Shown one piece after another: positions 8,158 through 62,542 of a stretch of DNA of 64,000 nt. Position numbers and translations under genes: made by a program. The notes below the pieces were generated by a model. The model ran no database searches. It was not told the origin of the DNA and saw only the letters and a program-made list of their open reading frames with translations. How positions within the stretch are numbered: the first letter of the stretch is position 1; each line of letters starts with the position of its first letter. This stretch comes from Minisyncoccota bacterium (lineage in GTDB: Bacteria > Patescibacteriota > Minisyncoccia > Phycocordibacterales > UBA9973): positions 6,876 through 70,875 of the forward strand of contig JBAYKP010000004.1 of NCBI GenBank assembly GCA_041664465.1, read 5' to 3'.

Positions 8158-8161
8158 TTTT

Positions 8162-9484: not shown

Positions 9485-9485
9485 A

Positions 9486-22292: not shown

Positions 22293-22364
22293 TCGGCGCG
22301 ACAGGCCTCGAACCTGCATCTCCTGACTGCCAGTCAAGCTTCTTAACGTTAAAACGACGCACCG
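22293..22364 (-). tRNA. tRNA-like gene, possibly tRNA-Ala (GGC), with an atypical D-arm
   Basis: The reverse complement is CGGUGCG...GCAGGUUCGAGGCCUGU-CGCGCCG-A. A 7-bp acceptor stem (one G-U pair), anticodon stem CTTGA/TCAGG with loop CTGGCAG, and a T-arm GGTTCGAGG all fit. Positions 10-25 (GTTTTAACGTTAAGAA) cannot form a canonical D-stem, and the G3:U70 Ala identity pair is missing. Confidence 0.4.
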
Positions 22365-31661: not shown

Positions 31662-32441
31662 ATGATTAAAAATATATTTCTATTAGAACTAAGGAAAACT
31701 AATAAGTTATCTCAGGCTTTTATGGCTCAAAAGATAAGTGTTTCTCGTGCCAGTTATATTGAAATTGAAAAAGGAGCAAAAGAACTTACTCTTTCACAAG
31801 CACAAAAAATTGCTGATATTTTTAATATATCTCTCGAGTCTCTTATTTCTGGTAAAAAAACTTCTGAAATAGAAGTATCTTTTAGTAAAGAAAAAAATAA
31901 AGAAGAGAAAAAAGAACTTCGTATTGATGTTCCACAAAAAAATATTAAAAAATTTAAAGAAGTTCTATTATATATATTAGAAAAAGTTGGAAGCAAGTCT
32001 AATGTTGGAATGACTGTTTTGTATAAACTTCTGTATTTTATAGATTTTGACTATTATGAAAAATTTGAAGAGCAATTAATAGGGGCCACATATATTAAGA
32101 ATCATTTTGGGCCGACTCCTATTGAATTTAAAAAGATTGTAGAGAATCTTGAGTTAAAAGGAGAACTAGAAACTGTAAAAAGTAAGTATTTTCTACATGA
32201 ACAGACCAAATATCTATCTCGTCGTCAACCTGATATATCTGTCTTAAGTGCTCAAGAGATAAAGCATATAGATGAGGTTCTTTCTAGACTTTCTGATAAA
32301 TCTGCAACCGAATTAAGTGATTATTCGCATTTAGATATTCCATGGCTAGGAACAGAAGATGGAAAGGTAATAAAATATGAATCTGTTTTTTATCGAACTA
32401 AAGATACATCAGTAAGAATATATGCCGATGATAACTTATAA
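31662..32441 (+). CDS. HTH (XRE-family) fused to a Panacea/DUF4065 (SocA-like) domain; putative antitoxin
   Basis: N-terminal HTH_3 (LRKTNKLSQAFMAQKISVSRASYIEIEKG). The C-terminal LYKLLYFIDFDYYEKFEEQLIGATYIKNHFGPTP matches the Panacea/DUF4065 signature. Confidence 0.6.
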   Translation: MIKNIFLLELRKTNKLSQAFMAQKISVSRASYIEIEKGAKELTLSQAQKIADIFNISLESLISGKKTSEIEVSFSKEKNKEEKKELRIDVPQKNIKKFKEVLLYILEKVGSKSNVGMTVLYKLLYFIDFDYYEKFEEQLIGATYIKNHFGPTPIEFKKIVENLELKGELETVKSKYFLHEQTKYLSRRQPDISVLSAQEIKHIDEVLSRLSDKSATELSDYSHLDIPWLGTEDGKVIKYESVFYRTKDTSVRIYADDNL

Positions 32442-32793
32442 AAAGACAGAGGATTTTGAAAAAGATCTCAAACGGCTTCTTAAAAAATTTCCAACATTGG
32501 TTGAAGATATTGAAATTGCCAAATCTTTTGCGATAGAGATGTATCACCTAAAGAATATAGACAAGAGATCGATTTTTCCGATTCCAAATTTCTTTTCTGA
32601 AACAATAAAAATCTGTAAACTCAAAAAGTTTGCTTGTAAATCTTTAAAGGGGCGTGGTGTAAAAAGTAGAATAAGAATTATATATGCTTTTTACGTAGAA
32701 ACTAAAACAATAGATTTTATTGAAATGTATTTTAAAGGAGAAAAAGAAATAGAAGATAAAGAGAGGATAAAAGAATATTTAAAAAACATTTAA
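32422..32793 (+). CDS. RelE/ParE-fold toxin-like protein, overlapping the Panacea gene by 20 nt
   Basis: 123 aa. The basic C-terminal region RIRIIYAFYVETKTIDFIEMYFKGEKE fits the RelE/ParE pattern (R.iY....e...v.il.i..r). Confidence 0.45.
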   Translation: MPMITYKKTEDFEKDLKRLLKKFPTLVEDIEIAKSFAIEMYHLKNIDKRSIFPIPNFFSETIKICKLKKFACKSLKGRGVKSRIRIIYAFYVETKTIDFIEMYFKGEKEIEDKERIKEYLKNI

Positions 32794-34171: not shown

Positions 34172-35713
34172 ATGGCGCTAAACAAACCAAACAAAATTCA
34201 GATAATAAAATATGCTCCACCACCACCAGATCTGCCGACGTTGGGTAGAGTAGATCCAAGTGATGTTGCTTTCATTGGCCGTACAAATTATGTTGCTTCT
34301 CTTGAAGAAAAGAGGTTTGTTTTCGGTATCAAGCGTATAGACCGTAGACGTCATATGTACATCATTGGTAAATCTGGAGTTGGTAAATCTAAACTTCAAG
34401 AATTAATGATTCGCCAAGATATTGCTTATGGGCATGGTGTCTGTATTATTGATCCACACGGTGAGCTCATAGAAGATATTTTGAATTTTATCCCAGAAGA
34501 AAGAATCGAAGACGTCTGCGTAATAGATCCGGGAGATATTGATTTCCCTTCATCCTTTAATCCGCTTGCCAATATTGACCCAACTTTCAAACATCAACTT
34601 ACTCAAGGGTTGATAGAAGTTCTCCGTAAGCAGTTCGGAGCGAACTGGACGCCACGTCTAGAGCACGTTTTTCGTTTTACGGTTCTTGCCTTGCTTGACT
34701 ATCCATTTGCGACAATGCGCGGAATGATAAGTATGCTAACTGATCGTAATTATCGTCAGAAAGTGGTGGAGTATATAGAAGACGACATGGTCAAAAGATT
34801 CTGGGCTATAGAATTCGCTGACTGGTCTGAGAAGTTTGATACGGACGCCATCATTCCTTTGGTGAACAAGCTTGGGCAATTCCTTTCTGATCCAATGCTC
34901 CGAAATATTTTCGGACAGAAAGAAAATAAAATAGATCTAGAACAAATAATGAATGAGCAGAAGATTCTGATGATTAATCTTTCTAAGGGTAAGATTGGTG
35001 AAGAGAACTCATCTTTCTTTGGAGCGATGTTCCTTACCAAGATCAAGCAGGCTGGTATGGCTCGTGCCAAGCTTGAGCCGAAAGATCGTGCGGACTTTTA
35101 TGTTTATGTGGATGAGTTCCAAAACATTGTGACAGATACATTTGAGAACATTCTTTCAGAGGCTCGTAAGTATGGATTGAACCTCATTATCGCTCACCAG
35201 TATATAGCGCAGTTATTACCGAAAGTTCAGCAAGCTGTCCTTGGTAATGTGGGCTCCATAGTGACATTCCGTGTTGGAGGTGATGATGCTACGAAGTTGA
35301 AGCCCGAGTTCGCACCAGTCTTTGATGTGAAAGATATGATTAATCTTGGAGTTGGAGAATTTTATATTAAGATGACGATTGATGGAGAAAGTTATGATCC
35401 GTTTTCAGGAGAGACATTGAAAGTTCTTCCCGCGACACATCCTTCTTATAGGCAAAGAGTTATAGAAGCTTCACGTCGCAAATATTCTATCCCTGCTGGT
35501 GACGCTCAGCGTTTGATAGCCGAAGAAGAAGCCACTATCATCCGTAGTGCTCAAGAAAAGGCTGCAATCACTGGCAAGAAAGGAAAAAGTGAAGAATCTA
35601 ATGAAGAAGAGGAAAACAATAAAGAAGAAAATGATGAAATAGAAAATAAAGAAGAACAAAAAAGCAAACCAAAACCTAAAAAAGAAGAAAAAGGCGGCGA
35701 GCCATTAATCTAA
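34172..35713 (+). CDS. Soluble P-loop ATPase, TraD/VirD4 (type IV coupling protein)-like, of the FtsK/HerA superfamily
   Basis: 513 aa. Walker A IIGKSGVGKS, Walker B YVYVDEFQN, a T4CP-like AHQYIAQL motif, and an acidic low-complexity C-terminus. No transmembrane helix. Confidence 0.5.
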   Translation: MALNKPNKIQIIKYAPPPPDLPTLGRVDPSDVAFIGRTNYVASLEEKRFVFGIKRIDRRRHMYIIGKSGVGKSKLQELMIRQDIAYGHGVCIIDPHGELIEDILNFIPEERIEDVCVIDPGDIDFPSSFNPLANIDPTFKHQLTQGLIEVLRKQFGANWTPRLEHVFRFTVLALLDYPFATMRGMISMLTDRNYRQKVVEYIEDDMVKRFWAIEFADWSEKFDTDAIIPLVNKLGQFLSDPMLRNIFGQKENKIDLEQIMNEQKILMINLSKGKIGEENSSFFGAMFLTKIKQAGMARAKLEPKDRADFYVYVDEFQNIVTDTFENILSEARKYGLNLIIAHQYIAQLLPKVQQAVLGNVGSIVTFRVGGDDATKLKPEFAPVFDVKDMINLGVGEFYIKMTIDGESYDPFSGETLKVLPATHPSYRQRVIEASRRKYSIPAGDAQRLIAEEEATIIRSAQEKAAITGKKGKSEESNEEEENNKEENDEIENKEEQKSKPKPKKEEKGGEPLI

Positions 35714-35791
35714 TTAACTTTGTTTACAAGGCAATCCAGAGTGGTATAATTATAATACAAGGTCGCAAAGCTTAATTTCTCTATATATTTT

Positions 35792-36097
35792 ATGGTATTT
35801 ATCTATACAACATGTAAAAATGTAGAAGAGGCACAAAAGCTAGGAGGACTTATTATAAGTAAGAAAATAGCTGCTTGTGTGGATTTCTGGCCTATATCTT
35901 CTTGTTATAATTGGAAGGGAAGTCTTCAATGTATATCTCAGGCGATGCTTTTGATCACTACTTTTGAATCAAAATTAGAAGAAGTGAATCAAATCATTTC
36001 AGAGAACCATACTTATAGTACTCCTCTTATCGCCGGAGTGGATGTCCGTCGCATTAATCACCCTTATAAAGAATGGATGATGGAAGAAATAGTTTAA
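35792..36097 (+). CDS. cutA: Divalent-cation tolerance protein CutA
   Basis: 101 aa. IYTTCKNVEEAQKLGGLIISKKIAACVDFWPISSCYNWKGSL...HPYKEW matches the CutA1 family. Confidence 0.75.
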   Translation: MVFIYTTCKNVEEAQKLGGLIISKKIAACVDFWPISSCYNWKGSLQCISQAMLLITTFESKLEEVNQIISENHTYSTPLIAGVDVRRINHPYKEWMMEEIV

Positions 36098-36107
36098 TGC
36101 CTTTTAT

Positions 36108-36527
36108 ATGAATTCAAAGAAAATTTTAATTTTTGGAGTATTTGATGGTATACATGATGGCCATATGCATTTTGTAAATGAAGCTAGAACGCATGGCGAT
36201 CACCTCGTAGCTGTCGTGGCGCGTGATGCCGTGGTAGAAGAACTGAAAGGTGTATTACCAAAAGAGAATGAAGTAGAGAGAATAAAAGAACTTTTAAAAA
36301 TTCCCGAGATAGACCTCGTGCTTTTAGGAGATCCACAGATTGGTACTTATAATGTGCTCAAAGAAGTGAAGCCCGATATTGTATTCCTTGGATATGACCA
36401 AGAGGCACTTAAAAAAGATTTAGATAAGAAAATAAAAAGTGGTATTTTAAAAGATATAGAGATTGTCATTGGCACATCGCACAAAGGAGAAGAATTGCAC
36501 TCATCAATTTTGAAAAAGAAAAAATAA
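36108..36527 (+). CDS. Cytidylyltransferase-like nucleotidyltransferase (HxGH motif)
   Basis: 139 aa. ILIFGVFDGIHDGHMHFVNEAR carries the (T/H)xGH nucleotidyltransferase signature. Confidence 0.55.
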   Translation: MNSKKILIFGVFDGIHDGHMHFVNEARTHGDHLVAVVARDAVVEELKGVLPKENEVERIKELLKIPEIDLVLLGDPQIGTYNVLKEVKPDIVFLGYDQEALKKDLDKKIKSGILKDIEIVIGTSHKGEELHSSILKKKK

Positions 36528-36577
36528 ACTCGGAACCTTTTATATTTTAAAGAATCAAGGTATACTATAACTAATCT

Positions 36578-38854
36578 ATGGAAAATGAAATTCCACACAA
36601 TCGTGACATCACTTATTTTGGTAAGACGAACTTTCGTAGTAGCAATACTATTTTCGGTATAAAAAGGAAAGACCGTCGTCAGCATATGTATATACTTGGT
36701 AAGTCAGGTACTGGTAAGTCTGTTCTTCTCTCTAATCTTATTTCTCAAAATATCCAAAATGGCGAAGGCGTCTGCGTCGTAGACCCTCACGGAGAAACAG
36801 TAGAAGAGATTCTCCATCTCATTCCTGATCACAGAGTTAAAGATGTTATATACTTCAATCCAGCTGATACGGACTTTCATATTGGCTTCAATGTCATTCA
36901 GCTTGATGATCCAAAGTACAAGCACTTGGTGGCTTCGGGGCTTATGGGGATTTTCACGAAGATTTGGGCGAATGCGTGGAGTTCAAGAATGGAATACATC
37001 CTAAACAATGCAATTCTTGCTTTGCTTGATACACCTGGTACAACGCTTCTCGGAATTCCTCGTCTTCTAGTGGACAAGGATTATCGTCAGATGATAATTG
37101 GCAATCTGAAAGATCCAGTAGTCAAAGCTTTCTGGGTCCACGAGTATGAGCAATGGCGTGAACAGTTCCGAAATGAAGCCATCGCTCCGATTCAGAACAA
37201 AGTAGGACAGTTCCTTTCTACTTCTATTATTCGTAATGTTGTCGGTCAGCCGAAATCCACTATTGATATTTTTGACATAATGAATAGTGGGAAAATTTTC
37301 CTTGTGAACGTTTCAAAGGGGCGTATCGGTGAAGACAATTCGGCTCTCCTCGGTGGTATGATTATTACCAAGATTCAGCTTGCTGCGATGGAGCGTGTAC
37401 GTATACCTGAGGACGAACGTAAAGACTTTTATTTATATGTCGATGAATTCCAGAACTTTGCTACAGATGCGTTTGCCAATATTCTTTCTGAGGCTCGCAA
37501 ATACCGTTTGAATCTTACTGTCGCCCACCAGTATACTGCTCAGCTTGAGAATAAAGATGGCTCGAAAGTTCGTGATGCTGTCTTTGGCAACGTCGGCACC
37601 ATGATCATTTTTCGTGTAGGAGGAGATGATGCTGAATTTTTAGAGAAAGAATTTGAGCCTGAATTCACAGCACTAGATTTAGTGAATTTACCGAACTATC
37701 ATATTTATATAAAGCTTATGATTGATGGAGTGACGAGTCGTCCATTCTCTGCGGTGACGTTGCCGCCACTTAAAGTTGATTTATCACTAGGAGTTAAAGA
37801 TAAAATTATAGAATCTTCTAGGAAGCTTTATACTCGTCCTCGTAAAGAAGTTGAAGATGAGATATCACGATGGAGTGGAATGCTTCAAGTGGGAGATGGT
37901 GAAGCGAAATATAAGGCTGATTGTTCAAACTGTGGAAAAGTTACGATGGTGCCTTTTGAGCCTCAGGAGGGTAGACCAGTTTACTGTAAAGAATGTATGT
38001 TTAAAATTAAGAGTGGAGAATTGAAGCCTGAGACTGGATTCATCGCTTCACGTTCATCTCGTCAAGAAGAGAAAGTTTCTACTGAACCTTTGGCTGCACT
38101 TGGTATAGAATTCGGGGTGACAGATAAGAATTTTAGAGTTTCCAAGAATCAAGAACAGACAAAAAATTCTGCCCCGATCAATATGGATACGAATCATCAC
38201 AATGGCCATATAAAATCTAATAATCTAGGAGGAAATATTAGTAACAATAATAATTATAAAAATAATTTTGTAAAACAAGAAAGGAGGCATACAGGTCCTT
38301 CTCCACTTTTGAAAGGATTATTGCAGAAAATAGGTATAAATAATGACAAAAAAGTAGATGAAGCTCCTAAAATAGAAGCCGTCGAAATTAAGAAAGAAGT
38401 ACCAGCTCCGATGTCTTTAGAATCTTTAAAAGCAAAAACAAATGAAGAAATTAAAAAGGATTTTGTAATACCAGCCAAGGAAGCATCCGAAGAAAAGAAA
38501 GCATCTTTGAAAGATTTGCTTGAAAAGACAGCAAATCATAATTTCCCAAAGGAAAGTCATTTGGAGGAAAAAGAAAAGGCTCAGGTTGCTTCGCAACCTG
38601 AGCCAGAAGTTAAAATTCCTGAGCCAGAAGTCATTTCACCAGTTCCTCAAAAAGAAGACAAGGTAGAGGCTGCTCCACAGGAAAATCTTTTTGAGAGGTC
38701 CTCGGATGAGGGAGGACAAGGTGCCAGACCATCTCAAAAAGACATTCCTGTTTCGCAACCAAAGCCCGAAACAAAATCAGATGCTGATTCTTGGCAGAAA
38801 CGTAAGATAAAGAAAGAAGTTCCAGAAGATGTGCTTCGTAAAGTATTAGAATAA
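36578..38854 (+). CDS. Soluble TraD/VirD4-like P-loop ATPase (paralog of 34172-35713) with a C-terminal CxxC...CxxC zinc ribbon and a long disordered tail
   Basis: 758 aa. Walker A ILGKSGTGKS, Walker B LYVDEFQN and AHQYTAQL, then CSNCGKVTMVPFEPQEGRPVYCKEC, then a low-complexity K/E/P-rich tail with PEPEV repeats. Confidence 0.5.
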   Translation: MENEIPHNRDITYFGKTNFRSSNTIFGIKRKDRRQHMYILGKSGTGKSVLLSNLISQNIQNGEGVCVVDPHGETVEEILHLIPDHRVKDVIYFNPADTDFHIGFNVIQLDDPKYKHLVASGLMGIFTKIWANAWSSRMEYILNNAILALLDTPGTTLLGIPRLLVDKDYRQMIIGNLKDPVVKAFWVHEYEQWREQFRNEAIAPIQNKVGQFLSTSIIRNVVGQPKSTIDIFDIMNSGKIFLVNVSKGRIGEDNSALLGGMIITKIQLAAMERVRIPEDERKDFYLYVDEFQNFATDAFANILSEARKYRLNLTVAHQYTAQLENKDGSKVRDAVFGNVGTMIIFRVGGDDAEFLEKEFEPEFTALDLVNLPNYHIYIKLMIDGVTSRPFSAVTLPPLKVDLSLGVKDKIIESSRKLYTRPRKEVEDEISRWSGMLQVGDGEAKYKADCSNCGKVTMVPFEPQEGRPVYCKECMFKIKSGELKPETGFIASRSSRQEEKVSTEPLAALGIEFGVTDKNFRVSKNQEQTKNSAPINMDTNHHNGHIKSNNLGGNISNNNNYKNNFVKQERRHTGPSPLLKGLLQKIGINNDKKVDEAPKIEAVEIKKEVPAPMSLESLKAKTNEEIKKDFVIPAKEASEEKKASLKDLLEKTANHNFPKESHLEEKEKAQVASQPEPEVKIPEPEVISPVPQKEDKVEAAPQENLFERSSDEGGQGARPSQKDIPVSQPKPETKSDADSWQKRKIKKEVPEDVLRKVLE

Positions 38855-38860
38855 ATTTTT

Positions 38861-40261
38861 ATGATTATCAAAAGAATAAAATATTCTATAGTCTTGCTCG
38901 TAATGTTTTTTTCTTTTGTAAATTTAGCTTGTGCTGGTCTTGAGATTACAGAGATAAATAATTCAAAAGCAACAGTCAATCGTTGGATTAAAATTTATAA
39001 TAATGACTCAAGTGAAACTCTGACGGAATGGTTTGTTATGGATGATCATCTTCCGTTATTAACTGGTGGTTTTTGGCATTCTCACGCAATTAAGGCTGAT
39101 GGTTCTTCGACATTAGCTCCTAATTCTTACGCCATAATAACAAATTATTCTAACATAGAAACTTTTAAAACTAAAAATCCAGATATTTCAGGTATGCCAT
39201 TGTTTTATGGAAGTTTAACCTTTGAAAAAGAAGGAATAGAAGGAACTATGGGTCTTAGTAAGGACAAAAAAACAATCATTGGTCAATTGTCTTATGGTGG
39301 AGCCAGCACTTCATTAAATAATGATTCCTCAGCTAATTCATCTGAAGAAAATCCAGTAGACGAAACAGTTGATCTTATCCCTGTTAACAATAAGATTCCT
39401 ATAATTTATAAGATATCCACCAAAATTATTGCTCCCAAGATAGCCACAGCTGGTATTCCTTTTAGTATAGATCACAGTACAACTGGACTCAGTAAAGAGA
39501 AAATAGTTTTTGGTAAATTTATTTGGAATTTCGGTGACGGGATGAAAAAGGAGGGAAGTACATCAGACCCATTTGAATACATTTATGATTATCCCGGGGA
39601 GTATGTTCTCACCCTTTCATATACTGATTCTATTTTTGATACGAAGCCTGATGCGACTGACAGACTTACTATCAAAGTTATTCCTTCAGGAGTGGTCATA
39701 AGCTCTGTGGGGACTTATGCTGATCCATTTGTAGAGATAGAGAATAATTCAAGCTACGAAATGTCTCTCAATAAATGGATATTGAAAGGTAATGTTCATT
39801 CATTTTTAATTCCCGAAGGTATGGTAATCTTGCCAAATAAAAAGCTCAAACTCTCTCCACGTATTACCGGCTTTGATTTCAATGATTTGAGTTCTATTTC
39901 TATCATAGACCAATCAGGGCAAACCTTTGCAACCTATCCAAAACAAAATAAATTTTCCAAATCTTATTCATCCTATTCTACAAACGATAATTCAAATGGC
40001 AATATTGTGAAAGGGAATACTGTGGAAAGTAATAAAGTAGAAAGTCTGAAAAATAATGAAAATGTTATAAATTTAAATGACCTTGGTGCAAGTGCCGGCA
40101 ATGCTGATAATGGATTAAGTAATAAAACACTCATATATTTGGGTCTCATTGGCATTATCATAATAGGTATTGCCAGTGTAGTCCTCATCCGTCGCAAGGT
40201 AGACTATCCAGACTATGTGGAAAAGGAAATCAGTGCAAAAGATATGACGATAATAGAGTAG
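38861..40261 (+). CDS. Surface protein: signal/anchor, lamin-tail-like domain, PKD domain, second lamin-tail-like domain, C-terminal transmembrane anchor
   Basis: 466 aa. LTD-like LEITEINNS...WIKIYNNDSSETLTEW and FVEIENNSSYEMSLNKWILKG, a PKD motif WNFGDG, and a C-terminal hydrophobic helix followed by RRK. Confidence 0.55.
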   Translation: MIIKRIKYSIVLLVMFFSFVNLACAGLEITEINNSKATVNRWIKIYNNDSSETLTEWFVMDDHLPLLTGGFWHSHAIKADGSSTLAPNSYAIITNYSNIETFKTKNPDISGMPLFYGSLTFEKEGIEGTMGLSKDKKTIIGQLSYGGASTSLNNDSSANSSEENPVDETVDLIPVNNKIPIIYKISTKIIAPKIATAGIPFSIDHSTTGLSKEKIVFGKFIWNFGDGMKKEGSTSDPFEYIYDYPGEYVLTLSYTDSIFDTKPDATDRLTIKVIPSGVVISSVGTYADPFVEIENNSSYEMSLNKWILKGNVHSFLIPEGMVILPNKKLKLSPRITGFDFNDLSSISIIDQSGQTFATYPKQNKFSKSYSSYSTNDNSNGNIVKGNTVESNKVESLKNNENVINLNDLGASAGNADNGLSNKTLIYLGLIGIIIIGIASVVLIRRKVDYPDYVEKEISAKDMTIIE

Positions 40262-40394: not shown

Positions 40395-42065
40395 ATGAAA
40401 AATGAGGCTAAGACCTGCCAAAATTGCAAGAAAGACTTCATTATAGAGGCTGACGATTTTTCTTTCTATGAGAAGATCAAAGTCCCAGCACCGACTTGGT
40501 GCCCAGAGTGTAGACAGCAACGCCGATATGCATGGAGAAATGAAAGGACTCTATACAGAAGAAATTGTGATTTGTGTGGTAAGAGTACCGTGACTATTTA
40601 TTCTCCTAATAAAGATTTGAAAGTTTATTGCTTAAAATGCTGGTGGGGAGATGGTTGGGATCCTGCCAATTATGGCAAAGATTTTGATTTTTCAAGACCT
40701 TTTTTTGAGCAGTTCCATGAATTTCAAAAGGAAGTTCCTAGAATGGCACTTTTAAGTAAAAATAGTATCAATTCCGACTATACAAATCATTCAGGAGATA
40801 ATAAGAATACTTATCTATCTTTCTGTTGTTTTAATACGGAAGATGTTTTTTACTCAACATGGATATTTAAGTCAAGAAATTGTATGGATTCTAGTTATAT
40901 TTATGATAGTGGAGAAAGATTGTATGAATCTATTGATTCTCGTAAGGCATATCATTGTCAATATGGAATTCTTTTAGAAAATTGCGTTGATTGTTTATAT
41001 TGTTATGATTGTCATAATTGCAATGATTGTTTTATGTCTTCAAATTTGAGGAACAAAAGTAATGTATTTAAAAATGAACAATATTCTCGTGAAGCATATT
41101 TAGAAAAATTAAAAGAATATAATTTGAGTTCATATTTAGATCGTGAAAAATTATATAAGGAATTCCTAGATTTGATGGTTAATAATTCTATCCATCGTTA
41201 TGTGATAAGTGAACGTAATGTCAATTCTACTGGAAATCTAATATTTAATAGCAAAAATGCGATTAATTGTTTTGACGCTGAAACATTAGAAGATGTAAAA
41301 AGATCTTACGCAGTTCTTGACATGAAGGACTCTATAGATATATATCACGCTGGAACAAAATCAGAACTTTGTTATGAATGCCATGGTTGCACTCGTATTT
41401 ATAATGTAAAATTTTCACATCTTTGTTATGACAATAGAGATATCTCGTACTGTGACTCATGCCAAAACTCTCAAAATCTTTTTGGGTGTATTTCTGTCAA
41501 AAAGGGTGAATATATGATTTTAAATAAAAAGTATTCAAAAGAAGAATATCTAGAATTAAAAGAAAAGATAATAGAACATATGAAGAAGGGAGGGGAGTAT
41601 GGAGAATTCTTCCCACCATCTATTTCTCCTGTTTGTTATAATGAAACTCAAGGCAATTATTATATGCCAGAAACTAGAGATGCAATCTTGGCTCGTGGTT
41701 GGCGATGGGAAGATAAAGTCCTGGGTACTTTTGGTAAAGAAACAATACAGCCTGAAGATATTCCTGACAATATAGAAGATATAGATGATTCTATTACAAA
41801 AGAGATATTGAAGTGTATAACTTGCACGAAGAATTATAATATTACCCCAGATGAATTAACTTTTTATAAAAGAGAAAATATTCCTATCCCTAAAAATTGC
41901 CCGGAATGTAGATACAAGAAGCGATTTGCCCTACGCTTACCTCGCAGACTCTGGCACAGAAGCTGTATGCACGAAGGCTGTAATAATGAATTCGAGACTA
42001 GCTATGCACCAGAAAGACCGGAGATAGTGTATTGTGAAAAGTGCTATCAGCAAGCAATTTTATAA
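40395..42065 (+). CDS. Cysteine-rich protein with N- and C-terminal zinc-ribbon-like modules (paralog 1)
   Basis: 556 aa. The N-terminal CQNCKKDFIIEADDFSFYEKIKVPAPTWCPECR...CDLCGK...YCLKCW is mirrored by the C-terminal CITCTKNY...FYKRENIPIPKNCPECR...YCEKCYQQ. The central region has a 5-residue Cys/Asn periodicity (NCVDCLYCYDCHNCNDC). Confidence 0.4.
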   Translation: MKNEAKTCQNCKKDFIIEADDFSFYEKIKVPAPTWCPECRQQRRYAWRNERTLYRRNCDLCGKSTVTIYSPNKDLKVYCLKCWWGDGWDPANYGKDFDFSRPFFEQFHEFQKEVPRMALLSKNSINSDYTNHSGDNKNTYLSFCCFNTEDVFYSTWIFKSRNCMDSSYIYDSGERLYESIDSRKAYHCQYGILLENCVDCLYCYDCHNCNDCFMSSNLRNKSNVFKNEQYSREAYLEKLKEYNLSSYLDREKLYKEFLDLMVNNSIHRYVISERNVNSTGNLIFNSKNAINCFDAETLEDVKRSYAVLDMKDSIDIYHAGTKSELCYECHGCTRIYNVKFSHLCYDNRDISYCDSCQNSQNLFGCISVKKGEYMILNKKYSKEEYLELKEKIIEHMKKGGEYGEFFPPSISPVCYNETQGNYYMPETRDAILARGWRWEDKVLGTFGKETIQPEDIPDNIEDIDDSITKEILKCITCTKNYNITPDELTFYKRENIPIPKNCPECRYKKRFALRLPRRLWHRSCMHEGCNNEFETSYAPERPEIVYCEKCYQQAIL

Positions 42066-42119
42066 ATGTAACAGATTTCTGCGATCGTCGAAAAGTGTTA
42101 TGATGAATAAATAATATAT

Positions 42120-43796
42120 ATGGAACAAAAATCAGCAACAAAGAATTGCCAGAATTGTAAGAAAGACTTCATTATAGAGCCAGATGATTTTTCATTTTAT
42201 GAGAAGATGCAGGTGCCTGTACCCAATGTTTGCCCTGATTGTCGTTTTAAAATGCGCGCTATGTGGAGAAATGAAATGACTCTTTATTCAGGTCAAAAAT
42301 GTGAAATGTGTAAGAAAAGTATTATTACTATATATAATCCAAAATCAAAATATATCAAATATTGTCATGATTGTTTTTATTCTGAGAAATGGAGCCCAAA
42401 AGATTATGCAAAATCGTACGATAAATCAAGACCATTTTTTGACCAAATGAAAGAATTATTGATAGAAGTTCCAAAAGACTGCTTAGGTATTTCTACTGGT
42501 GATGGCCAAAATATTAATAGTGAATATATTAATATGGCTTCTGGCTGTAAAAATTGTTATCTTGTTTTTAATACTAGCCCCGCTGAAGAGTTGCTTTATT
42601 CAAGAGGAATTAAAAATGGGACTTTTTCTTCAGATATTTATTTTGGAGTGAAATTTGAAAATTGCTATGACTGTGTTAGTGTCCAAGAATCAGCTAATGT
42701 TTTCTGGGGGCAAAATATTATAGGTTGTGTTAATTCATATTTTATTTTAAACGGTAGTGGTCTTACTAATTGTTTTGGATGTGTAAATTTAAGGAATAAA
42801 AGTAATTGCTGGTTTAATGAGCAACTTACTCCCGAAGAATATAAAAAAAGATTAAAAGAAGTTATGGGGAGTTATTCTAAAATTATTGAAGCTCGTAAAA
42901 AGTTTGAAGAATTTTGTTTACAGCACCCCCGCAGAGAAAATAATAATCTGAAGACTATTGATTGTGTAGGAGATTATTTAACTGAATGTAAAAATGTGGT
43001 GAATTCATTTGAGGTTGCAAAGTCTGAAGATTGTCGATATTTATTTTCATCTAAAGTGATTAAAGATTCTTTGGGGACTATAGGATTTGGAACGAATTCT
43101 GAAAGACTTTTAGAGGTTATCGCTACAGGATACTCTAGTAATGTGATAGGTTCATACTGGGCAGAAAATTCAAGCGACATAATGTATTCATTTGATCTAA
43201 GGAATTGTAATGATTGCATAGGTTGTGATGCACTTAGGAATGGTAAATATGCCATTTTTAATAAAGAGTATTCAAAGGAAGAATATGAAGAATTAAAAGC
43301 TCATATTATAAAAGAGCTTACAGAATTAGGTATACATGGGTTGATGATGCCGGTTACGATAGCTCCATTTGCTTATAATGAATCTATAGCACAAGATAAT
43401 TTTCCTTTGACCAAAGAGGAAGCCCTAGCACAAGGTTTCAGATGGGAAGATGACATACAGATGACTAAAAGCAAGGAAACCTTACAGCCAAATGAGATAG
43501 AGGATAATATAAAAGATGTGAAAGATTCTATAACGAGTGAGATATTAAAATGTATAACTTGTGAAAGAAATTATAAAATTACAGAACAAGAGCTTTTATT
43601 TTATAGAAAGATGAATTTACCAATTCCTCGTCAATGTTTCTTTTGTCGTCACCAAGATAGAATAAAAAGGCGAGGCCCATACAAATTCTGGGACCGTAAA
43701 TGTGATCATTGTGGTAAGGATATAAAGACAAATTATGCACCAGAAAGAAAAGAAATAATATACTGCGAAAAGTGTTATCAGCAAGAAGTAATTTAG
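42120..43796 (+). CDS. Cysteine-rich protein with N- and C-terminal zinc-ribbon-like modules (paralog 2)
   Basis: 558 aa. Same architecture as paralog 1 (CQNCKKDFIIEPDDFSFYEKMQVPVPNVCPDCR ... CITCERNYKITEQELLFYRKMNLPIPRQCFFCR ... YCEKCYQQ). Confidence 0.4.
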   Translation: MEQKSATKNCQNCKKDFIIEPDDFSFYEKMQVPVPNVCPDCRFKMRAMWRNEMTLYSGQKCEMCKKSIITIYNPKSKYIKYCHDCFYSEKWSPKDYAKSYDKSRPFFDQMKELLIEVPKDCLGISTGDGQNINSEYINMASGCKNCYLVFNTSPAEELLYSRGIKNGTFSSDIYFGVKFENCYDCVSVQESANVFWGQNIIGCVNSYFILNGSGLTNCFGCVNLRNKSNCWFNEQLTPEEYKKRLKEVMGSYSKIIEARKKFEEFCLQHPRRENNNLKTIDCVGDYLTECKNVVNSFEVAKSEDCRYLFSSKVIKDSLGTIGFGTNSERLLEVIATGYSSNVIGSYWAENSSDIMYSFDLRNCNDCIGCDALRNGKYAIFNKEYSKEEYEELKAHIIKELTELGIHGLMMPVTIAPFAYNESIAQDNFPLTKEEALAQGFRWEDDIQMTKSKETLQPNEIEDNIKDVKDSITSEILKCITCERNYKITEQELLFYRKMNLPIPRQCFFCRHQDRIKRRGPYKFWDRKCDHCGKDIKTNYAPERKEIIYCEKCYQQEVI

Positions 43797-44632: not shown

Positions 44633-46144
44633 TTATTTTAATATTTTAATATCAGCACCGATGGAGTTTAATCTATCGGCGATTTCTTCGTATCCACGAT
44701 TGATCATATAGACATTGCGGAGGATTGAAGTGCCATTGGCCCCGAGCATACCGATGAGGATTATCATTGCAGGGCGGAGGGCTGGAGGGCAGACTATCTG
44801 GGCGCCTTTGAGTGGCGTCCCGCCCTCTATATAGACTCTGTGTGGATCGGCGAGAGTGATGCTAGCGCCAAGTCTATTTAATTCTGTGAAGTATATTGCA
44901 CGATTCTCATAGACCCAGTCGTGGATCATAGTCTGACCTTTGGCACGAATTGCAATAGGGACAAAGAATGGAAGATTATCCATATTAAGTCCTGGGTAAG
45001 GATTGGCGTGGATTTTATCTCCTAAGGCTTTTAATTTAGAAGGGAAGATGTGCAAGTCCACAAGATTAGTTCGTCCATTATATGATTTATAAACTTTAGA
45101 TATTTTATATTTAAGCCCCATCCTTTTTAATTTCTCTAATTCAAGAGAAAGGAAGTCAATAGGGCAGCGGGTTATTTTAAGTTCTGAGTCAGTGGCAATT
45201 GCTGCAGAGATGAACATCATAGATTCAATAGGGTCCTCACTATTGGTATATTCAATATCCATATCTATATCTTTGATTCCGTGTACTATTAGAGTAGAAG
45301 TGCCTATACCCTCTATCTTCACTCCAAGCTTTTCTAAGAAGAAGCAGATTTCTTGGACCATATAGTTGGCACTTGCGAATTTGATAGTAGTCGTACCGTT
45401 TATCCTTGCCACAGCGGTAAGAATATTCTCACAAGCTGTATCTCCAGCTTCGTACATGACAATGTTTCCTGGTTTTAATTTTTTACTTTCTATTTTGTAT
45501 TCATTGTTTGTAGTTTTAATTTTAACACCGAGGTCTTCTAGTGCATAAGTATGTGCTGATATTGTTCTTTTGCCGAGTTTGCATCCAGAAGCATGAGGAA
45601 TAGAAAATGTTGGTAAAAGGTGAATAAGCGGGCCGATAATCATTACGACAGAGCGAGTCTTCACTGCAGATTCTACATTTATTTTATCTAAGGTAAAAGT
45701 TGCTGGAGGAGTGACAATGAGAGAATTATTTGCAATCCATTTAATAGAGACGCCAATACTTTCAAGAATTTCGATGACCCTGTAGACTTCTTCGATGCGG
45801 GCGATGCCGTGGAGAGTAGTCTTGCCACGATTGAGTAGGGATGCACAGAGAAGTCCAACGGCGCCATTTTTGGAAAAGTTTGTATTGATAGTGCCATGTA
45901 GTTTTTTACCGCCAACAATTTGAAAGTCTATAGAATTATTGATAGAGACTATCTGGTGCTCTAATACTTCGCTTATTTTGCCAAGTATCTCAGTACTGAA
46001 ATTCTGCTCTCCTTTCTCCATTCGTGCAACTGCCGATTGGGAGGTCTCAAGCTCTTTCGCGAAAGCGTCTTGAGTTAGACCTCGACGTTCTCTTAATTCC
46101 TTTATAAAATAGCCTATTTTCTGTTGTTCTGTCTCTTTTTTCAT
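44633..46144 (-). CDS. murA: UDP-N-acetylglucosamine 1-carboxyvinyltransferase with an N-terminal XRE-type HTH domain fusion
   Basis: 503 aa. Residues 10-65 form an HTH_3 (IKELRERRGLTQDAFAKELETSQSAVARMEKG). The remainder is MurA (IVGGKKLHGTINTNFSKNGAVGLLCASLL, active-site Cys in HASGCKLGKRTI). Confidence 0.8.
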   Translation of the reverse strand: MKKETEQQKIGYFIKELRERRGLTQDAFAKELETSQSAVARMEKGEQNFSTEILGKISEVLEHQIVSINNSIDFQIVGGKKLHGTINTNFSKNGAVGLLCASLLNRGKTTLHGIARIEEVYRVIEILESIGVSIKWIANNSLIVTPPATFTLDKINVESAVKTRSVVMIIGPLIHLLPTFSIPHASGCKLGKRTISAHTYALEDLGVKIKTTNNEYKIESKKLKPGNIVMYEAGDTACENILTAVARINGTTTIKFASANYMVQEICFFLEKLGVKIEGIGTSTLIVHGIKDIDMDIEYTNSEDPIESMMFISAAIATDSELKITRCPIDFLSLELEKLKRMGLKYKISKVYKSYNGRTNLVDLHIFPSKLKALGDKIHANPYPGLNMDNLPFFVPIAIRAKGQTMIHDWVYENRAIYFTELNRLGASITLADPHRVYIEGGTPLKGAQIVCPPALRPAMIILIGMLGANGTSILRNVYMINRGYEEIADRLNSIGADIKILK

Positions 46145-47248: not shown

Positions 47249-47352
47249 TTAAGAATTAATAATTACGAATTAAACTAAAAAATTACAATTAAGAAACGGC
47301 CGTTTCTTAATTGTAAAACGACTAAATTTACAAATTTAGTCGTTTTAGTTTG

Positions 47353-47434
47353 TGCCGGAGGGGAGACTTGAACTCCCAAGTCTTGCGACACGCGATTTTG
47401 AGTCGCGCATGGTTACCAATTTCATCACTCCGGC
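47353..47434 (-). tRNA. tRNA-Leu (anticodon CAA), with long variable arm
   Basis: The reverse complement is GCCGGAGTGATGAAATTGGTAACCATGCGCGACTCAAAATCGCGTGTCGCAAGACTTGGGAGTTCAAGTCTCCCCTCCGGCA. Anticodon stem CGCGA/TCGCG with loop CTCAAAA, and a type-II variable arm. Confidence 0.85.
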
Positions 47435-47490
47435 AATGCTTGTATTCTAACAGAAAAGCCAGAAAAATCAATTTTGAAATTATTCTATAT

Positions 47491-48669
47491 ATGGCGTATA
47501 GTAGATGTATGATTCAGAAACAAAATGATTCCCTTTCATACATAGAAATTTCGAAGGAAAATTTGATACACAATATCAAGCAATTTCGAGGTTTGCTGAA
47601 AAATAAAGAAAATTTAGGAGGCAAGACCAAGATTGCTGTGGTGGTGAAGTCCAATGCTTATGGGCATGGGGATATGGAAGTGGCGAAGATTACGAGTCCT
47701 TATGTGGATTACTTTCAAGTAGATAGTATAGAAGAGGGAGAGAGAGTGAGGGAAGTTACAAAAAAGCCAATTTTAATATTTGGTTACACAAACGATGATG
47801 GAATAAAGAGGGCTATAAAAATAAATGCGATTTTAGCTTGCTTTGATTTCGTACATTTACTTAAGATTAATCACATGGGAGGGGTTTTGAAGAAAAAAGT
47901 AAAAGTCCATCTAGCCATAGATTCTTATCTTGGCCGCGAGGGGATAATGCCTTCGCAAGTAGAGAATATAATTAAAGAAATAAAAAATTTAAAGAATATA
48001 ATTCTAGATGGTGTGTATTCGCATTTTGCAAACATTGAAGATACGATGAATTCCACACATGCAAACAGACAGATAGATACTTACCACAAATGCGTGGAAA
48101 TATTTAGGGAAAATGGCTATGAAAAAATAAATACCCACATCTCTGCTACTTCCGGAATTCTCGTATATGAGAAAGGAGAAAATCTGCACAGTATAGTCCG
48201 TCTTGGTATAGGACTTTATGGCTTGTGGCCAAGTGAGCATCTAGAATATTTGAATAAAAAGAAAATAAATTTGAAGCCAGTCATCAGGTGGGTAACGCAT
48301 GTCGCTCAAGTGAAAGTAATACCTGCCAACTATCCTATTGGTTATGGTCTTACTTATATTACAAAGAAAGCTACCAAGATAGCCGTAATACCCCAAGGTT
48401 ATGCCGATGGGCTTACTCGTCTGATGTCAAACAATGGAGAATTTTTAATCAGAGGTAAGAAGGCCAAGATACTTGGTAGAGTTGCAATGAATATGACAGT
48501 AGTAGATGTCTCAAATATTAAAGATGTAATACCAGAGGAAGAAGTGGTGATAATAGGTACTCAGAATAAGAGAGAGATTACAGTGGAAGATGTAGCTAAA
48601 AGAATGGATACTATAAACTATGAAGTAATTACTAAAATAAGTGCATTATTGCCAAGGGTTATTGTATAG
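47491..48669 (+). CDS. alr: Alanine racemase
   Basis: The PLP motif VVKSNAYGHG and the Alr C-terminal domain are present. The ORF-track start at 47350 overlaps tRNA-Leu, so the ATG at 47491 is preferred. Confidence 0.8.
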   Translation: MAYSRCMIQKQNDSLSYIEISKENLIHNIKQFRGLLKNKENLGGKTKIAVVVKSNAYGHGDMEVAKITSPYVDYFQVDSIEEGERVREVTKKPILIFGYTNDDGIKRAIKINAILACFDFVHLLKINHMGGVLKKKVKVHLAIDSYLGREGIMPSQVENIIKEIKNLKNIILDGVYSHFANIEDTMNSTHANRQIDTYHKCVEIFRENGYEKINTHISATSGILVYEKGENLHSIVRLGIGLYGLWPSEHLEYLNKKKINLKPVIRWVTHVAQVKVIPANYPIGYGLTYITKKATKIAVIPQGYADGLTRLMSNNGEFLIRGKKAKILGRVAMNMTVVDVSNIKDVIPEEEVVIIGTQNKREITVEDVAKRMDTINYEVITKISALLPRVIV

Positions 48670-60859: not shown

Positions 60860-62542
60860 ATGCCTAAAAAGATTCTGACATTCTTCAATAGGGAATTTAA
60901 TGGGATAAACGAAGCCGCCTTGTTACTTGGTGGCTTCGCTTTCCTTTCCCAAGTATTGGGGCTGATTCGTGATAGAGCACTTGCAAGTATAGTAGGAGCT
61001 GGTCCCACTTTGGACGTTTACTATGCAGCTTTTCGAATTCCTGATTTTATTTATATTTCTATTGCATCCCTTGCTTCGGTGACGGTCCTTCTTCCTTTTT
61101 TGATAAATAAAATGAAAGAGGATAATAATGACAAGGCTCGTCTCTTTCTAAACAATGTTTTTAGCGCTTATATGCTTTTTATGATTACAATCAGCGTAAT
61201 CATTTCTATTCTAATGCCATATATAGCTTCTTATATTGCTCCCGGTTTTGGAGAATCTCAACTAGCCTCACTCGTTACGACTAGTCGCATTATGCTTCTG
61301 TCTCCTATCTTCATTGGCTTATCAAATATGATTGGATCAGTTACGCAATTATTTAGGAACTTTTTTATTTTTTCTTTGTCTCCCATATTTTATAATTTAG
61401 GAATTCTATCAGGTATTATTTTTTTATATCCTATTTTTGGTGTTTATGGATTAGCTTATGGAGTGATTCTTGGCGCTGTTTTGCATTTATTGGTTCAAGT
61501 TCCTATCGTAGTAAGTCATGGATTATTCCCTAGATTAACTTTCAAAATAAAATGGCGAGAAATTTATAACGTTACCAAGTTATCTATTCCTAGGACATTA
61601 GCCTTATCTTGCAATAGTCTGGCTTTCATTGTCCTTATTGCTATGGCTTCCACTTTGAAAGAAGGATCTATATCTTTATTTACATTTTCCTTCAATCTCC
61701 AATCTGTTCCTGTTGGAATTATAGGGATTTCATATTCAGTTGCCGCTTTCCCGATTCTTGTCAGATCATTTTCTTTGAATGATATGAATAATTTCATCAC
61801 TCATATAATAGGAGCAGCCAAGCAAATCATTTTCTGGTCTTTGCCTATTATTGCTCTTATTACTGTTCTGCGTGCGCAGATTGTGCGTGTAGTCTTAGGT
61901 TCCAATGCTTTCTCTTGGTCAGACACTAGACTGACGGCCGCTGCTATTGCTTTATTTATAGTATCTTTGATCACACAGAGTTTAGTTCTTCTTTTTGTCC
62001 GAGGTTATTATGCTGCAGCCAAGACCAAGACCCCTCTTATTGTCAATGTATTCTCTTCTGTTATGGTTATAATCTTTGCTTACGTTACTCTTTTTATATT
62101 TAAAAATTATCCGGGCACTTTACATTCCATTGAATCAATTCTTAGGGTGAAAGATGTCCCAGGGACGATAATGTTAGCTCTGCCGATTGCTTACGCCTTA
62201 GGTTCAATATTGAATTTCTTTTTAATTTGGATTATGTTTAAGCGGGATTTCTTGAAGGGGAGAGGAACTATGCTTTATAAAACATTTTTAGAAAGTTTCT
62301 TAGGCGCCATTACGATGGGACTTTTTGCTTATATTTCATTAAATTTCTTTAGTTACATTTTTGATTTGGATACATTTCTAGGAATTTTCTTGCAAGGTTT
62401 GATCTCGGGACTTATAGGTATCGGGGCTGGTATATTAGTTTTGTATATATTTAAGAATCAAGAATTACTAGATATAGCAAAAGCTCTTAGCCATAAATTA
62501 TCAAATAAGAATATTATCGCCCCAGAGCAGACAGATTTATAG
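60860..62542 (+). CDS. murJ: Lipid II flippase MurJ/MviN
   Basis: 560 aa. The N-terminus ALLLGGFAFLSQVLGLIRDRALASIVGAGPTLDVYYAAFRIPDFIY matches the MurJ consensus, with 14 predicted transmembrane helices. Confidence 0.8.
   Translation: MPKKILTFFNREFNGINEAALLLGGFAFLSQVLGLIRDRALASIVGAGPTLDVYYAAFRIPDFIYISIASLASVTVLLPFLINKMKEDNNDKARLFLNNVFSAYMLFMITISVIISILMPYIASYIAPGFGESQLASLVTTSRIMLLSPIFIGLSNMIGSVTQLFRNFFIFSLSPIFYNLGILSGIIFLYPIFGVYGLAYGVILGAVLHLLVQVPIVVSHGLFPRLTFKIKWREIYNVTKLSIPRTLALSCNSLAFIVLIAMASTLKEGSISLFTFSFNLQSVPVGIIGISYSVAAFPILVRSFSLNDMNNFITHIIGAAKQIIFWSLPIIALITVLRAQIVRVVLGSNAFSWSDTRLTAAAIALFIVSLITQSLVLLFVRGYYAAAKTKTPLIVNVFSSVMVIIFAYVTLFIFKNYPGTLHSIESILRVKDVPGTIMLALPIAYALGSILNFFLIWIMFKRDFLKGRGTMLYKTFLESFLGAITMGLFAYISLNFFSYIFDLDTFLGIFLQGLISGLIGIGAGILVLYIFKNQELLDIAKALSHKLSNKNIIAPEQTDL

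Follow-up and report, generated by a model that had tools for sequence, protein, structure and literature searches.

The window analysed here, a stretch of 64,000 nucleotides from a Minisyncoccota bacterium (assembly GCA_041664465.1, contig JBAYKP010000004.1, positions 6,876 to 70,875 of the forward strand), encodes two soluble ATPases of the type IV coupling protein (T4CP) type, which we call A1 and A2. They are most probably the detached motor halves of a split T4CP. The ancestor was one protein consisting of an N-terminal transmembrane (TM) hairpin, a domain of ~330 amino acids (aa), a linker and the motor; we refer to its membrane half as X. The fused form survives in Saccharibacteria, Berkelbacteria, Bacillus phages (PHROG 5156) and an actinobacterial conjugative type IV secretion system (T4SS) cluster. 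In most of the candidate phyla radiation (CPR) the gene is cut exactly behind the linker, X ending in EPPxNLP-COOH and the motor gene coming next. In the lineage of the window, the motors and the two genes between them (A1, cutA, a nucleotidyltransferase (NTase) gene and A2) appear to have moved away from X and its neighbors SIG4 and c26. On this account A1 and A2 lack a TM domain because their membrane half is encoded separately as X.

A1 and A2 share 46% identity across 425 aa (BLASTP, E 3e-138) and both exceed the Pfam gathering scores for TrwB_AAD_bind, T4SS-DNA_transf, DUF87 and TraG-D_C, although DUF87 at 30-37 bits (cut-off 23.2) indicates likeness at the superfamily level only. An all-alpha domain is inserted between Walker A and Walker B, and the TrwB_AAD_bind match of the motors runs over profile positions 10-311 of 387. 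The AlphaFold2 (AF2) model of A2, a monomer covering residues 1-520 at moderate confidence (predicted local distance difference test score, pLDDT, 71; predicted TM-score, pTM, 0.67), shows an alpha/beta nucleotide-binding domain (NBD) broken by a nine-helix insertion from H112 to H237. TrwB was the sole PDB sequence match of the motors. The best Foldseek match of the A2 model was DotL, the T4CP of Legionella (6sz9), followed by HerA and VirB4, with modest TM-scores of 0.4-0.5. Because of the TrwB match, the all-alpha insert and DotL as best structural match, we place A1 and A2 in the VirD4/TrwB branch of the FtsK/HerA superfamily. They do not reach the NCBIfam T4CP equivalogs (TraD, CD1115, CedD and others), the best scores being 53-54 bits against cut-offs of 250-650. 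Since no match to FtsK_SpoIIIE or to a gamma (KOPS-binding) domain was found in Pfam or NCBIfam at E<=0.01, they are not FtsK proper. No TM helix was detected in A1 or A2 using the maximum 19-residue Kyte-Doolittle value (KD19), which was 1.2, compared with 2.66 for the neighboring Nramp. An original prediction, made from the sequence alone, had described two paralogous soluble VirD4/TraD-like ATPases; these results bear it out, and the motifs it quoted are all present, namely Walker A, Walker B, AHQYIAQL / AHQYTAQL and GNVGSIVTFRVGGDDA (A1) / GNVGTMIIFRVGGDDA (A2).

The separate membrane half was identified in two sets of loci, with open reading frames (ORFs) called mechanically. One is a motor-anchored set of 80 loci in which every ORF was clustered; the other is an independent metagenome set anchored on X and not on a motor. 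The 80 loci show a conserved order, secD-secF-SIG4-X-(c26)-motor, across CPR classes (for example, in L012 SIG4 lies at 6936-7976, X at 8045-9457 and c26 at 9467-9979; the same genes occur in L086-L165). X is 430-580 aa long, with two N-terminal TM helices and a domain of ~330-400 aa. SIG4 combines Sigma70 region 4 with a HARE-HTH/RNA polymerase (RNAP)-delta-like domain, is DNA-binding, and lies upstream of X in nearly all CPR classes. Neither X nor c26 has a match in Pfam, NCBIfam or the PDB. The ~170-aa c26 protein has one TM segment, and its AHRIRNxLVH motif resembles Rx4-6H, the motif of HEPN proteins.

An 896-aa Saccharibacteria long form unites the two halves: X aligns to its aa 5-384 (E 2.6e-29), and A1 and A2 align to its C-terminal motor. 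A cleaned X profile built from 41 sequences finds every long CPR form through its N-terminus (E 1e-39 to 8e-90), along with phage G gp156 (6e-20), SPO1 gp27.4 (2e-8) and an 812-aa Embleya T4CP (8e-8), and gives no match to A1 or A2. In the ~750-aa forms of Gracilibacteria and Daviesbacteria the match covers the soluble part of X. Along the 824 profile positions of PHROG 5156, X falls on 23-357 and the motors on 388-818. Judged by these alignments, X corresponds to the first ~390 aa of the long, fused proteins. The Embleya T4CP is adjoined by PrgI, a VirB4-like ATPase, a replication-relaxation protein and NlpC/P60, and thus belongs to a genuine monoderm conjugation cluster. Fused X-plus-motor proteins of PHROG 5156 were also seen in lytic Bacillus phages as SPO1 gp27.4 (L084:4747-7467) and phage G gp156 (L085:2196-6338 together with gp155); in phage G the gene adjoins one annotated as VirB-like.

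The junction of the two halves is well defined. In fused forms it reads ...EELASLYHLP..ETPNI.W...K.GEPP.NLP.. and continues, after about 12 aa, with FG.TNFR....FGIKR.DR.RH.YIIGKSG. Stand-alone X proteins terminate in (E/A)PP.NLP[IVF]x-COOH in 28/41 cases and in GPPAGLAI[FY]G..E.IEKY-COOH in 9/41, and in some of them the motif is duplicated and a disordered linker precedes the ending. A2-type motors start just past the X-linker point and A1-type motors start with a linker copy of their own. This N-terminal peptide of A1, nearly invariant in 120 orthologs and with the linker form PN.IQIIKYAPPPP[DE]LP, aligns both with the ...K.GEPP.NLP... stretch where the halves meet in fused forms and with the C-terminal end of X where X stands alone. 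A motor gene lies within 900 bp after 39 of the 41 X genes, and in the X-anchored set a motor was found downstream of X in 59 of the 62 loci having room. The canonical Paceibacteria operon in that set is secD-secF-SIG4-X-c26-A1-(cutA)-Cys556 x n-(NTase)-A2, Cys556 being a family of Cys-rich proteins described below. Among 150 diversity-balanced cluster representatives taken from the top of the list, 67 were fused (60 with the X domain) and 83 were soluble (2 with any TM segment). Soluble T4CPs paired with a separate membrane protein are a recognized class, exemplified by TraJ/TraI of pIP501 (PMC7434980). Reading the motors as free cytoplasmic enzymes from their lack of TM helices does not suit most CPR, which encode the membrane half X upstream.

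In the lineage of the window (the window itself, L001, L002, L027 and L166-L168), Nramp is found upstream of A1. X was not detected within 10 kb of the motors in this lineage or in the Nomurabacteria-type loci L004-L010, L014 and L018. Three X-c26 loci of the X-anchored set have no downstream motor and represent the reciprocal state. In four Nomurabacteria-type loci (L005, L009, L010 and L014) the motors lie between dnaK and dnaJ, in the order dnaK-A2-(Cys556)-A1-dnaJ, and other classes have the order dnaK-dnaJ-secDF-SIG4-X-A2. Since these orders differ between classes, they suggest rearrangement inside an old synteny block.

The motor family is very large. An exhaustive HMMER scan (E<=1e-30) yielded 5,579 clusters at 50% identity. 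Among GTDB species representatives, a second scan confirmed at least 595 matches, which cover every major CPR class. Quinonero-Coronel et al. (2025, PMC12102498) counted 5,713 VirD4-type T4CP homologues, spread over 96% of their Patescibacteria genomes (2,918 of 3,035), and left the exaptation of these homologues open. The window motors very probably belong to this same gene family, with about 2 copies per genome. The original prediction of a lineage-specific reuse of the fold is too narrow, because the family spans all CPR classes and has already been reported. In the literature searched, including passages of that paper, nothing was found on a split architecture, an X module, two motor clades, motifs in the tails or a linkage with Cys-rich proteins; the family has been counted before, and its architecture and associations appear to be new.

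In a neighbor-joining (NJ) tree of motor domains, calculated without support values, the CPR motors stand apart from phage, actinobacterial and proteobacterial relatives and form two clades. The A2 clade contains soluble zinc-ribbon motors of Paceibacteria and ABY1-type classes, and a fused form from Berkelbacteria branches close to its base. The A1 clade contains soluble Paceibacteria motors, fused forms of Gracilibacteria and Daviesbacteria and the Saccharibacteria long forms. On this unsupported tree, the duplication that gave rise to A1 and A2 is ancient. A1 orthologs are 80-93% identical across many metagenome-assembled genomes of Paceibacteria and Nomurabacteria, and in the closest relative (L001) A1 is conserved like MurA (88% vs 86%). 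The exact A2 protein is present in NCBI under the name ‘CxxC-x17-CxxC domain-containing protein [Ca. Paceibacterota]’. The closest motor relative outside the CPR (40% identity) is a 395-aa soluble orphan on a non-mobilizable Sulfitobacter plasmid (L081:8986-10173), where it adjoins recombinases and transposases. A 708-aa homolog on a Bradyrhizobium plasmid (L082:8044-10170) lies among CHAT and TPR genes.

A2 contains a zinc ribbon with the layout C449-x2-C452-x17-C470-x2-C473 (CSNCGK...YCKEC), which scores 51.4 bits with PF23477 (cut-off 27) and 54.1 bits with TIGR04272 (cut-off 36), in agreement with the original prediction of a ribbon in the second copy. Domains of this CxxC-x17-CxxC type were shown experimentally to bind zinc in small proteins of M. 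mazei (PMC12704099). In the window, the module was found in A2 and in both Cys-rich proteins only. The region behind the ribbon had been described as a disordered tail of roughly 280 aa. The tail and its PEPEV repeats (two copies) are there, and aa 486-520 have pLDDT below 50 in the AF2 model; however, a conservation map of 119 A2 orthologs shows four conserved islands plus an invariant C-terminal peptide and not featureless disorder. The invariant C-terminus reads SWQKRK.KKEVPEDVLRKVLE and the tip peptide is EVPEDVLRKVLE. Other tails of the A2 clade terminate in SLK[DE]AL-like or PGE.[IV]K[FL] motifs. The A1 clade has a different tip: in 28/36 of its proteins, drawn from several CPR classes, a variable acidic linker is closed by [EAMTL]P[LIMVP][IVL]-COOH. 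The C-terminal tails of TraD and DotL dock TraM or adaptor proteins. With its disordered linker and short conserved peptides, the A2 tail resembles such docking tails in layout. The X tip (KKGEPP.NLPI) is similar to both ends of A1, APPPPDLP at the N-terminus and GGEPLI at the tip, and all three may use a common docking groove.

A conserved neighbor that the original prediction had missed consists of two Cys-rich genes (40395-43796) belonging to the CPR-specific Cys556 family. Proteins of this family are ~556 aa long, apparently cytoplasmic, and have more than 6,865 homologs, every one annotated as hypothetical. Their domains follow the order ZnF-pair, M, M, ZnF-pair. No Pfam model covers the core of these proteins, and literature searches on the family found nothing. 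An internal duplication is evident from HHalign comparisons of M with M (98.7%, E 4e-16) and of one zinc-finger pair with the other (99.4%, E 2e-21), each pair being composed of a zf_Tbcl finger and a CxxC-x17-CxxC finger. The AF2 model (pLDDT 77, pTM 0.78) has no counterpart in the PDB or BFVD, and the sole hint from sequence profiles is a weak LIM-like match (E 6e-4). In some Cys556 paralogs zinc ligands have been lost (L167:6605-8248).

Cys556 genes form tandem arrays of up to 13 copies beside the ATPases (arrays were seen in L017, L023, L028, L052, L100, L143 and L150). Within 2 kb of the ATPase they account for 17-20% of the DNA, a share that has dropped to 3-6% at a distance of 8-10 kb; 82/88 copies lie on the same strand as the ATPase. 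They occur in 27/38 loci with an A1-clade motor versus 2/42 loci without one. This linkage, specific to the A1 clade, recurs in the X-anchored set, and in a relative represented by an 800-kb scaffold (L167) a family member lies between A1 and cutA. Cys556 proteins are candidate clients of the A1 branch and could be cargo of the A1-clade motor.

Taking these observations together, we tentatively propose an explanation in which split T4CP motors are docked on X and the A1 branch has Cys556 clients; as a whole it falls a little short of probable. Docking onto X would bring the soluble motors together at the membrane as hexameric ATPases, with contacts made by the EPPxNLP tip of X, the A1 N-terminal PN.IQIIKYAPPPPDLP and the A1 tip GEPLI-COOH. 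Whether the motors dock on X in this particular organism is, in our judgment, evenly balanced. The long motif-bearing tails and the zinc ribbon of A2 would recruit partners or cargo, as the C-terminal tails of DotL and TraD do. The likeliest clients of the A1 branch would be the four-zinc-finger proteins of ~556 aa encoded alongside it; as candidate cargo or as adaptors, they would be passed on to the CPR T4SS or a different membrane conduit. A role of the motors in handling protein cargo is possible yet rather doubtful. A more specific version, in which the X-tethered A1-clade motor would be a dedicated recruitment ATPase sending Cys556 proteins through the CPR T4SS into the host and A2 a general X-docked motor, with its ribbon and motif-rich tail as a DotL-like adaptor platform, is unlikely.

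A number of observations weigh against this explanation. Homologs of X, SIG4 and c26 are absent from the 64-kb window, and T4SS genes do not lie near the motors. Docking via linker and tip peptides is inferred from sequence only. VirB4 was reported in 2,417 genomes (80%), fewer than have T4CP-like genes (96%), and only 148 of the 5,713 CPR T4CP homologues lie near virB4 (PMC12102498). In S. epibionticum the T4CP homologue was reported to be non-essential, whereas T4SS genes are essential (PMC12102498). Cys556 arrays are lacking beside most A2-only and long-form loci, and these proteins are therefore not a universal substrate; they show no secretion signal, evidence of secretion or fold match. 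Phylogenetic independence of the loci is not given, and the Fisher p of 2e-10 for their co-occurrence with A1-clade motors therefore exaggerates the evidence. The unsupported NJ tree, the mechanical ORF calls and the pLDDT of 71 for A2 count on the same side. Finally, SIG4, the conserved upstream partner, is DNA-binding and therefore favors a nucleic-acid substrate.

This last point leads to the main alternative, which we consider fairly improbable, namely that the same split, membrane-docked machine moves nucleic acid, SIG4 handing DNA over to motors that pump it for uptake from hosts or for export and the Cys-rich zinc-finger proteins serving as DNA-/RNA-binding accessories or pilot proteins. 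The ancestors were conjugative coupling proteins, and the Embleya homolog stands beside a replication-relaxation protein; SPO1 gp27.4 and phage G gp156 belong to lytic phages, for which secreting effectors would serve no purpose. There is also weak NCBIfam likeness to the DNA translocases TraD and CedD, SIG4 is directly upstream of X even in Saccharibacteria, and CPR lack nucleotide synthesis, a point also made in PMC12102498. SIG4 could, however, be an RNAP-associated factor that is merely co-transcribed, and a DNA-binding gamma-like domain was not detected in A1 or A2. Relaxases are nearly absent in CPR, with 109 in 103 genomes (PMC12102498), and comEC-dependent competence already covers DNA uptake in S. 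epibionticum (PMC12857230). The motors may serve in DNA uptake or host transfer, roles put forward in the original prediction. It is quite unlikely that A1 and A2 are free-standing soluble cytoplasmic ATPases, exapted from the T4CP fold without a membrane partner or T4SS to act as nucleic-acid translocases or remodellers, or as unfoldases or assembly factors for zinc-finger proteins. The missing X in the window lineage and in the Nomurabacteria-type loci listed above, the soluble orphan homolog on the Sulfitobacter plasmid, the position of the motors between dnaK and dnaJ in some lineages and the exaptation left open in the literature (PMC12102498) would agree with this. Yet 95% of the loci with room have a motor gene behind X, the nearly invariant N-terminal linker of A1 is sensible only as a former connection to X, and the X-c26 loci lacking a downstream motor suggest relocation rather than loss.

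Two further readings are very improbable. One is that the genes form an anti-phage defense module, with a HerA/MADS-like ATPase and effectors, or a decaying integrated conjugative element. PADLOC gave weak matches to mad8 (E 3e-17) and HerA, the Foldseek matches include SIR2-HerA, and the Bradyrhizobium homolog lies among CHAT-domain genes. Against this stand the presence of the family in 96% of CPR genomes (PMC12102498), strong purifying selection (80-93% identity, with ORFs and catalytic motifs intact) and a core-gene context with conserved synteny and without nuclease, SIR2, methylase, integrase or relaxase partners. A defense system is disfavored by the weak and partial nature of the PADLOC matches and the lack of a defense context. 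The other reading, a housekeeping FtsK-like translocase for chromosome segregation or division, draws on the wide conservation of these members of the FtsK/HerA/VirD4 superfamily and on the occurrence of ftsW, mraY and murB in the neighborhood in several classes. It accords poorly with several results: FtsK_SpoIIIE and gamma-domain matches are absent, the motors have an all-alpha domain of the kind characteristic of VirD4/TrwB, the top matches in Pfam, the PDB and PHROG are all of T4CP type, and the S. epibionticum homolog was reported as non-essential (PMC12102498). We retain X-docked split motors as our preferred explanation, at the strength given above.

Table 1. Features of the A1-A2 region, with positions counted from the first letter of the window.
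Feature	Position	Strand	Basis
A1 (513 aa), soluble motor of T4CP type, A1 (EPLI-tip) clade	34172-35713	+	Pfam domains, no TM helix
A1 N-terminal peptide PNKIQIIKYAPPPPDLP, kept copy of the X-motor linker of fused forms	34187-34237	+	120 orthologs
A1 Walker A GKSGVGKS	34367-34390	+	column invariant in A1 and A2 alignments
A1 Walker B FYVYVDEFQN	35096-35125	+	DEF invariant in alignments
A1 variable acidic linker closing in conserved tip GGEPLI-COOH	35573-35710	+	ortholog comparison
cutA, frequent yet not universal in the Paceibacteria operon, downstream of A1	35792-36097	+	CutA1 E 1.8e-24
Cytidylyltransferase-like NTase, local passenger	36108-36527	+	CTP_transf_like E 1.5e-11
A2 (758 aa), soluble motor of T4CP type, A2 (zinc-ribbon) clade	36578-38854	+	Pfam as A1 plus zf_Tbcl_2
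A2 Walker A GKSGTGKS	36698-36721	+	motif coordinates computed
A2 all-alpha domain inserted in NBD, aa ~112-237	36911-37288	+	AF2 model, TrwB_AAD_bind alignment
A2 Walker B FYLYVDEFQN	37427-37456	+	motif coordinates computed
A2 CxxC-x17-CxxC zinc ribbon, aa 449-473	37922-37996	+	PF23477 E 8.5e-14, TIGR04272
A2 tail, K/E/P-rich variable linker with conserved islands	38012-38851	+	map of 119 orthologs
A2 tail island PLAALGIEF	38087-38113	+	conservation map
A2 tail island GPSPLLKGLLQKIG	38294-38335	+	conservation map
A2 tail island KEASEEKKASLKDLLEK	38477-38527	+	conservation map
A2 C-terminal peptide SWQKRKIKKEVPEDVLRKVLE	38789-38851	+	conservation map
LTD/PKD-domain protein, hydrophobic N- and C-terminal segments	38861-40261	+	Pfam LTD, PKD_4
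Cys556a, ZnF-pair/M/M/ZnF-pair family member	40395-42065	+	homologs, HHalign, linkage statistics
Cys556b, paralog of Cys556a (41% identity)	42120-43796	+	sequence comparison

The genes surrounding the motors (Table 1) are those of a core chromosome. Among the window ORFs scanned with Pfam and NCBIfam, which left out a few such as 58504-60846 and 60860-62542, we identified rpoBC, dnaG, rpoD, tsf, rpsB, mreBC, tgt and uvrABC, together with ddl, murA/B, alr, miaA, ychF, leuS and further genes. No T4SS, pilus or relaxase gene was found among these scanned ORFs, as the original prediction had said of T4SS and conjugation genes. The synteny of the window is kept on the 800-kb Nomurabacteria-type scaffold. 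With this synteny and the core-gene context, a mobile-element or prophage origin of the window genes was rejected.

The motors do bracket cutA and the cytidylyltransferase-like gene in the window, as originally described, but this is not a general feature. In the motor-anchored set, cutA is beside A1 in 8/80 loci, all from close Paceibacteria, and it recurs often downstream of A1 in the X-anchored Paceibacteria operons; the NTase gene was found in 4/80 loci, likewise from close Paceibacteria, and also in L160 and L167. With these counts, cutA and the NTase were rejected as general functional partners. The LTD/PKD gene begins 6 bp past A2 and has the same place in L001, L020 and L166-L168, though not in more distant relatives. 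A scan for promoters and terminators found promoter-like sites not enriched over shuffled sequence, and no plus-strand terminator-like site between 34172 and 43796, which is compatible with co-transcription without proving it.

Several other features of the window were recorded. A protein combining HTH_3 and SocA_Panacea (31662-32441) and the overlapping 123-aa ORF behind it (32422-32793) look like a Panacea-type toxin-antitoxin pair, located just upstream of Nramp and A1. MurA (44633-46144, minus strand), with an EPSP_synthase fold, carries an unusual N-terminal HTH_3 fusion that is kept in the 800-kb relative (L167, L168). The tRNA-Leu(caa) gene (47352-47434, minus strand) overlaps the mechanically called TTG start of alr (47350-48669, plus strand), and the true alr start is therefore probably further downstream. 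A tRNA at 22293-22364 (minus strand) was called by Rfam (40 bits) and is absent from the ARAGORN output.

The CPR/Patescibacteria make up a large part of bacterial diversity, and a T4SS is needed for growth on the host in the one genetically tractable species. The essential T4SS cluster of S. epibionticum was described without recognizable coupling or relaxase proteins (Wang et al. 2023, PMC10633639), and the present analysis bears on which substrates the CPR T4SS transports and how they are selected. The near-universal orphan T4CP homologues can be explained as split motor halves with a defined partner (X), a precise junction and conserved putative docking peptides, and the linkage between the A1 clade and Cys556 nominates candidate clients or cargo. 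If Cys556 proteins were indeed delivered into hosts, they would be the first candidate effector repertoire of a T4SS essential for the epibiotic lifestyle. Even if the cargo idea is wrong, the annotation of these genes as “DUF87” or “T4SS DNA-binding domain protein” is corrected and their missing TM domain is explained. SPO1-like phages and actinobacterial conjugation clusters may prove useful as tractable systems for studying the X-plus-motor unit.

Comparison with known systems sets the window motors among, and apart from, several groups. HerA, VirB4 and FtsK, translocases of the ASCE (additional strand, catalytic glutamate) type, have the same superfamily fold (Foldseek matches 4d2i, 9x1m and 4ag5; DUF87 above cut-off). 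In contrast to them, A1 and A2 have the VirD4-specific all-alpha domain and no FtsK_SpoIIIE match, and HAS-barrel, NurA, SIR2, DUF4297 or VirB3 partners were not found in the window or the examined loci. PHROG 5156 combines an X-like N-terminal half with a motor (matched by the motors at E 1e-54 to 2e-61 and by X at 4e-25 to 6e-13); these phage proteins differ in being fused, in belonging to lytic Bacillus phages, in sharing only 24-30% identity and in having neither the zinc ribbon nor the EPLI tip. In TraJ/TraI of pIP501 and in TraG-TraJ pairs, the gene of a soluble coupling motor stands beside that of a membrane protein thought to anchor it, as with X and its motor in relatives of the window. 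X is, however, large (2 TM segments plus ~330-400 aa) and is the severed N-terminal half of a fused ancestor, and it belongs to a chromosomal secDF-SIG4-X-motor operon with no tra operon and with two paralogous motors. VirD4, TrwB and TraD (TrwB of R388, 1e9r; DotL, 6sz9) share with A1 and A2 the P-loop NBD, the inserted all-alpha domain, DPHGE and the DEF of Walker B. The C-terminal extensions of TraD and DotL also have docking motifs, for TraM in the first case and for IcmSW, DotN and LvgA in the second, and the tails of A1 and A2 may be likened to them. Unlike these proteins, A1 and A2 have no N-terminal TM domain of their own, are chromosomal core genes present in two copies and do not lie beside VirB4, mating-pair formation or relaxase genes; the zinc ribbon, the EPLI tip and the X module are extras of the motor family.

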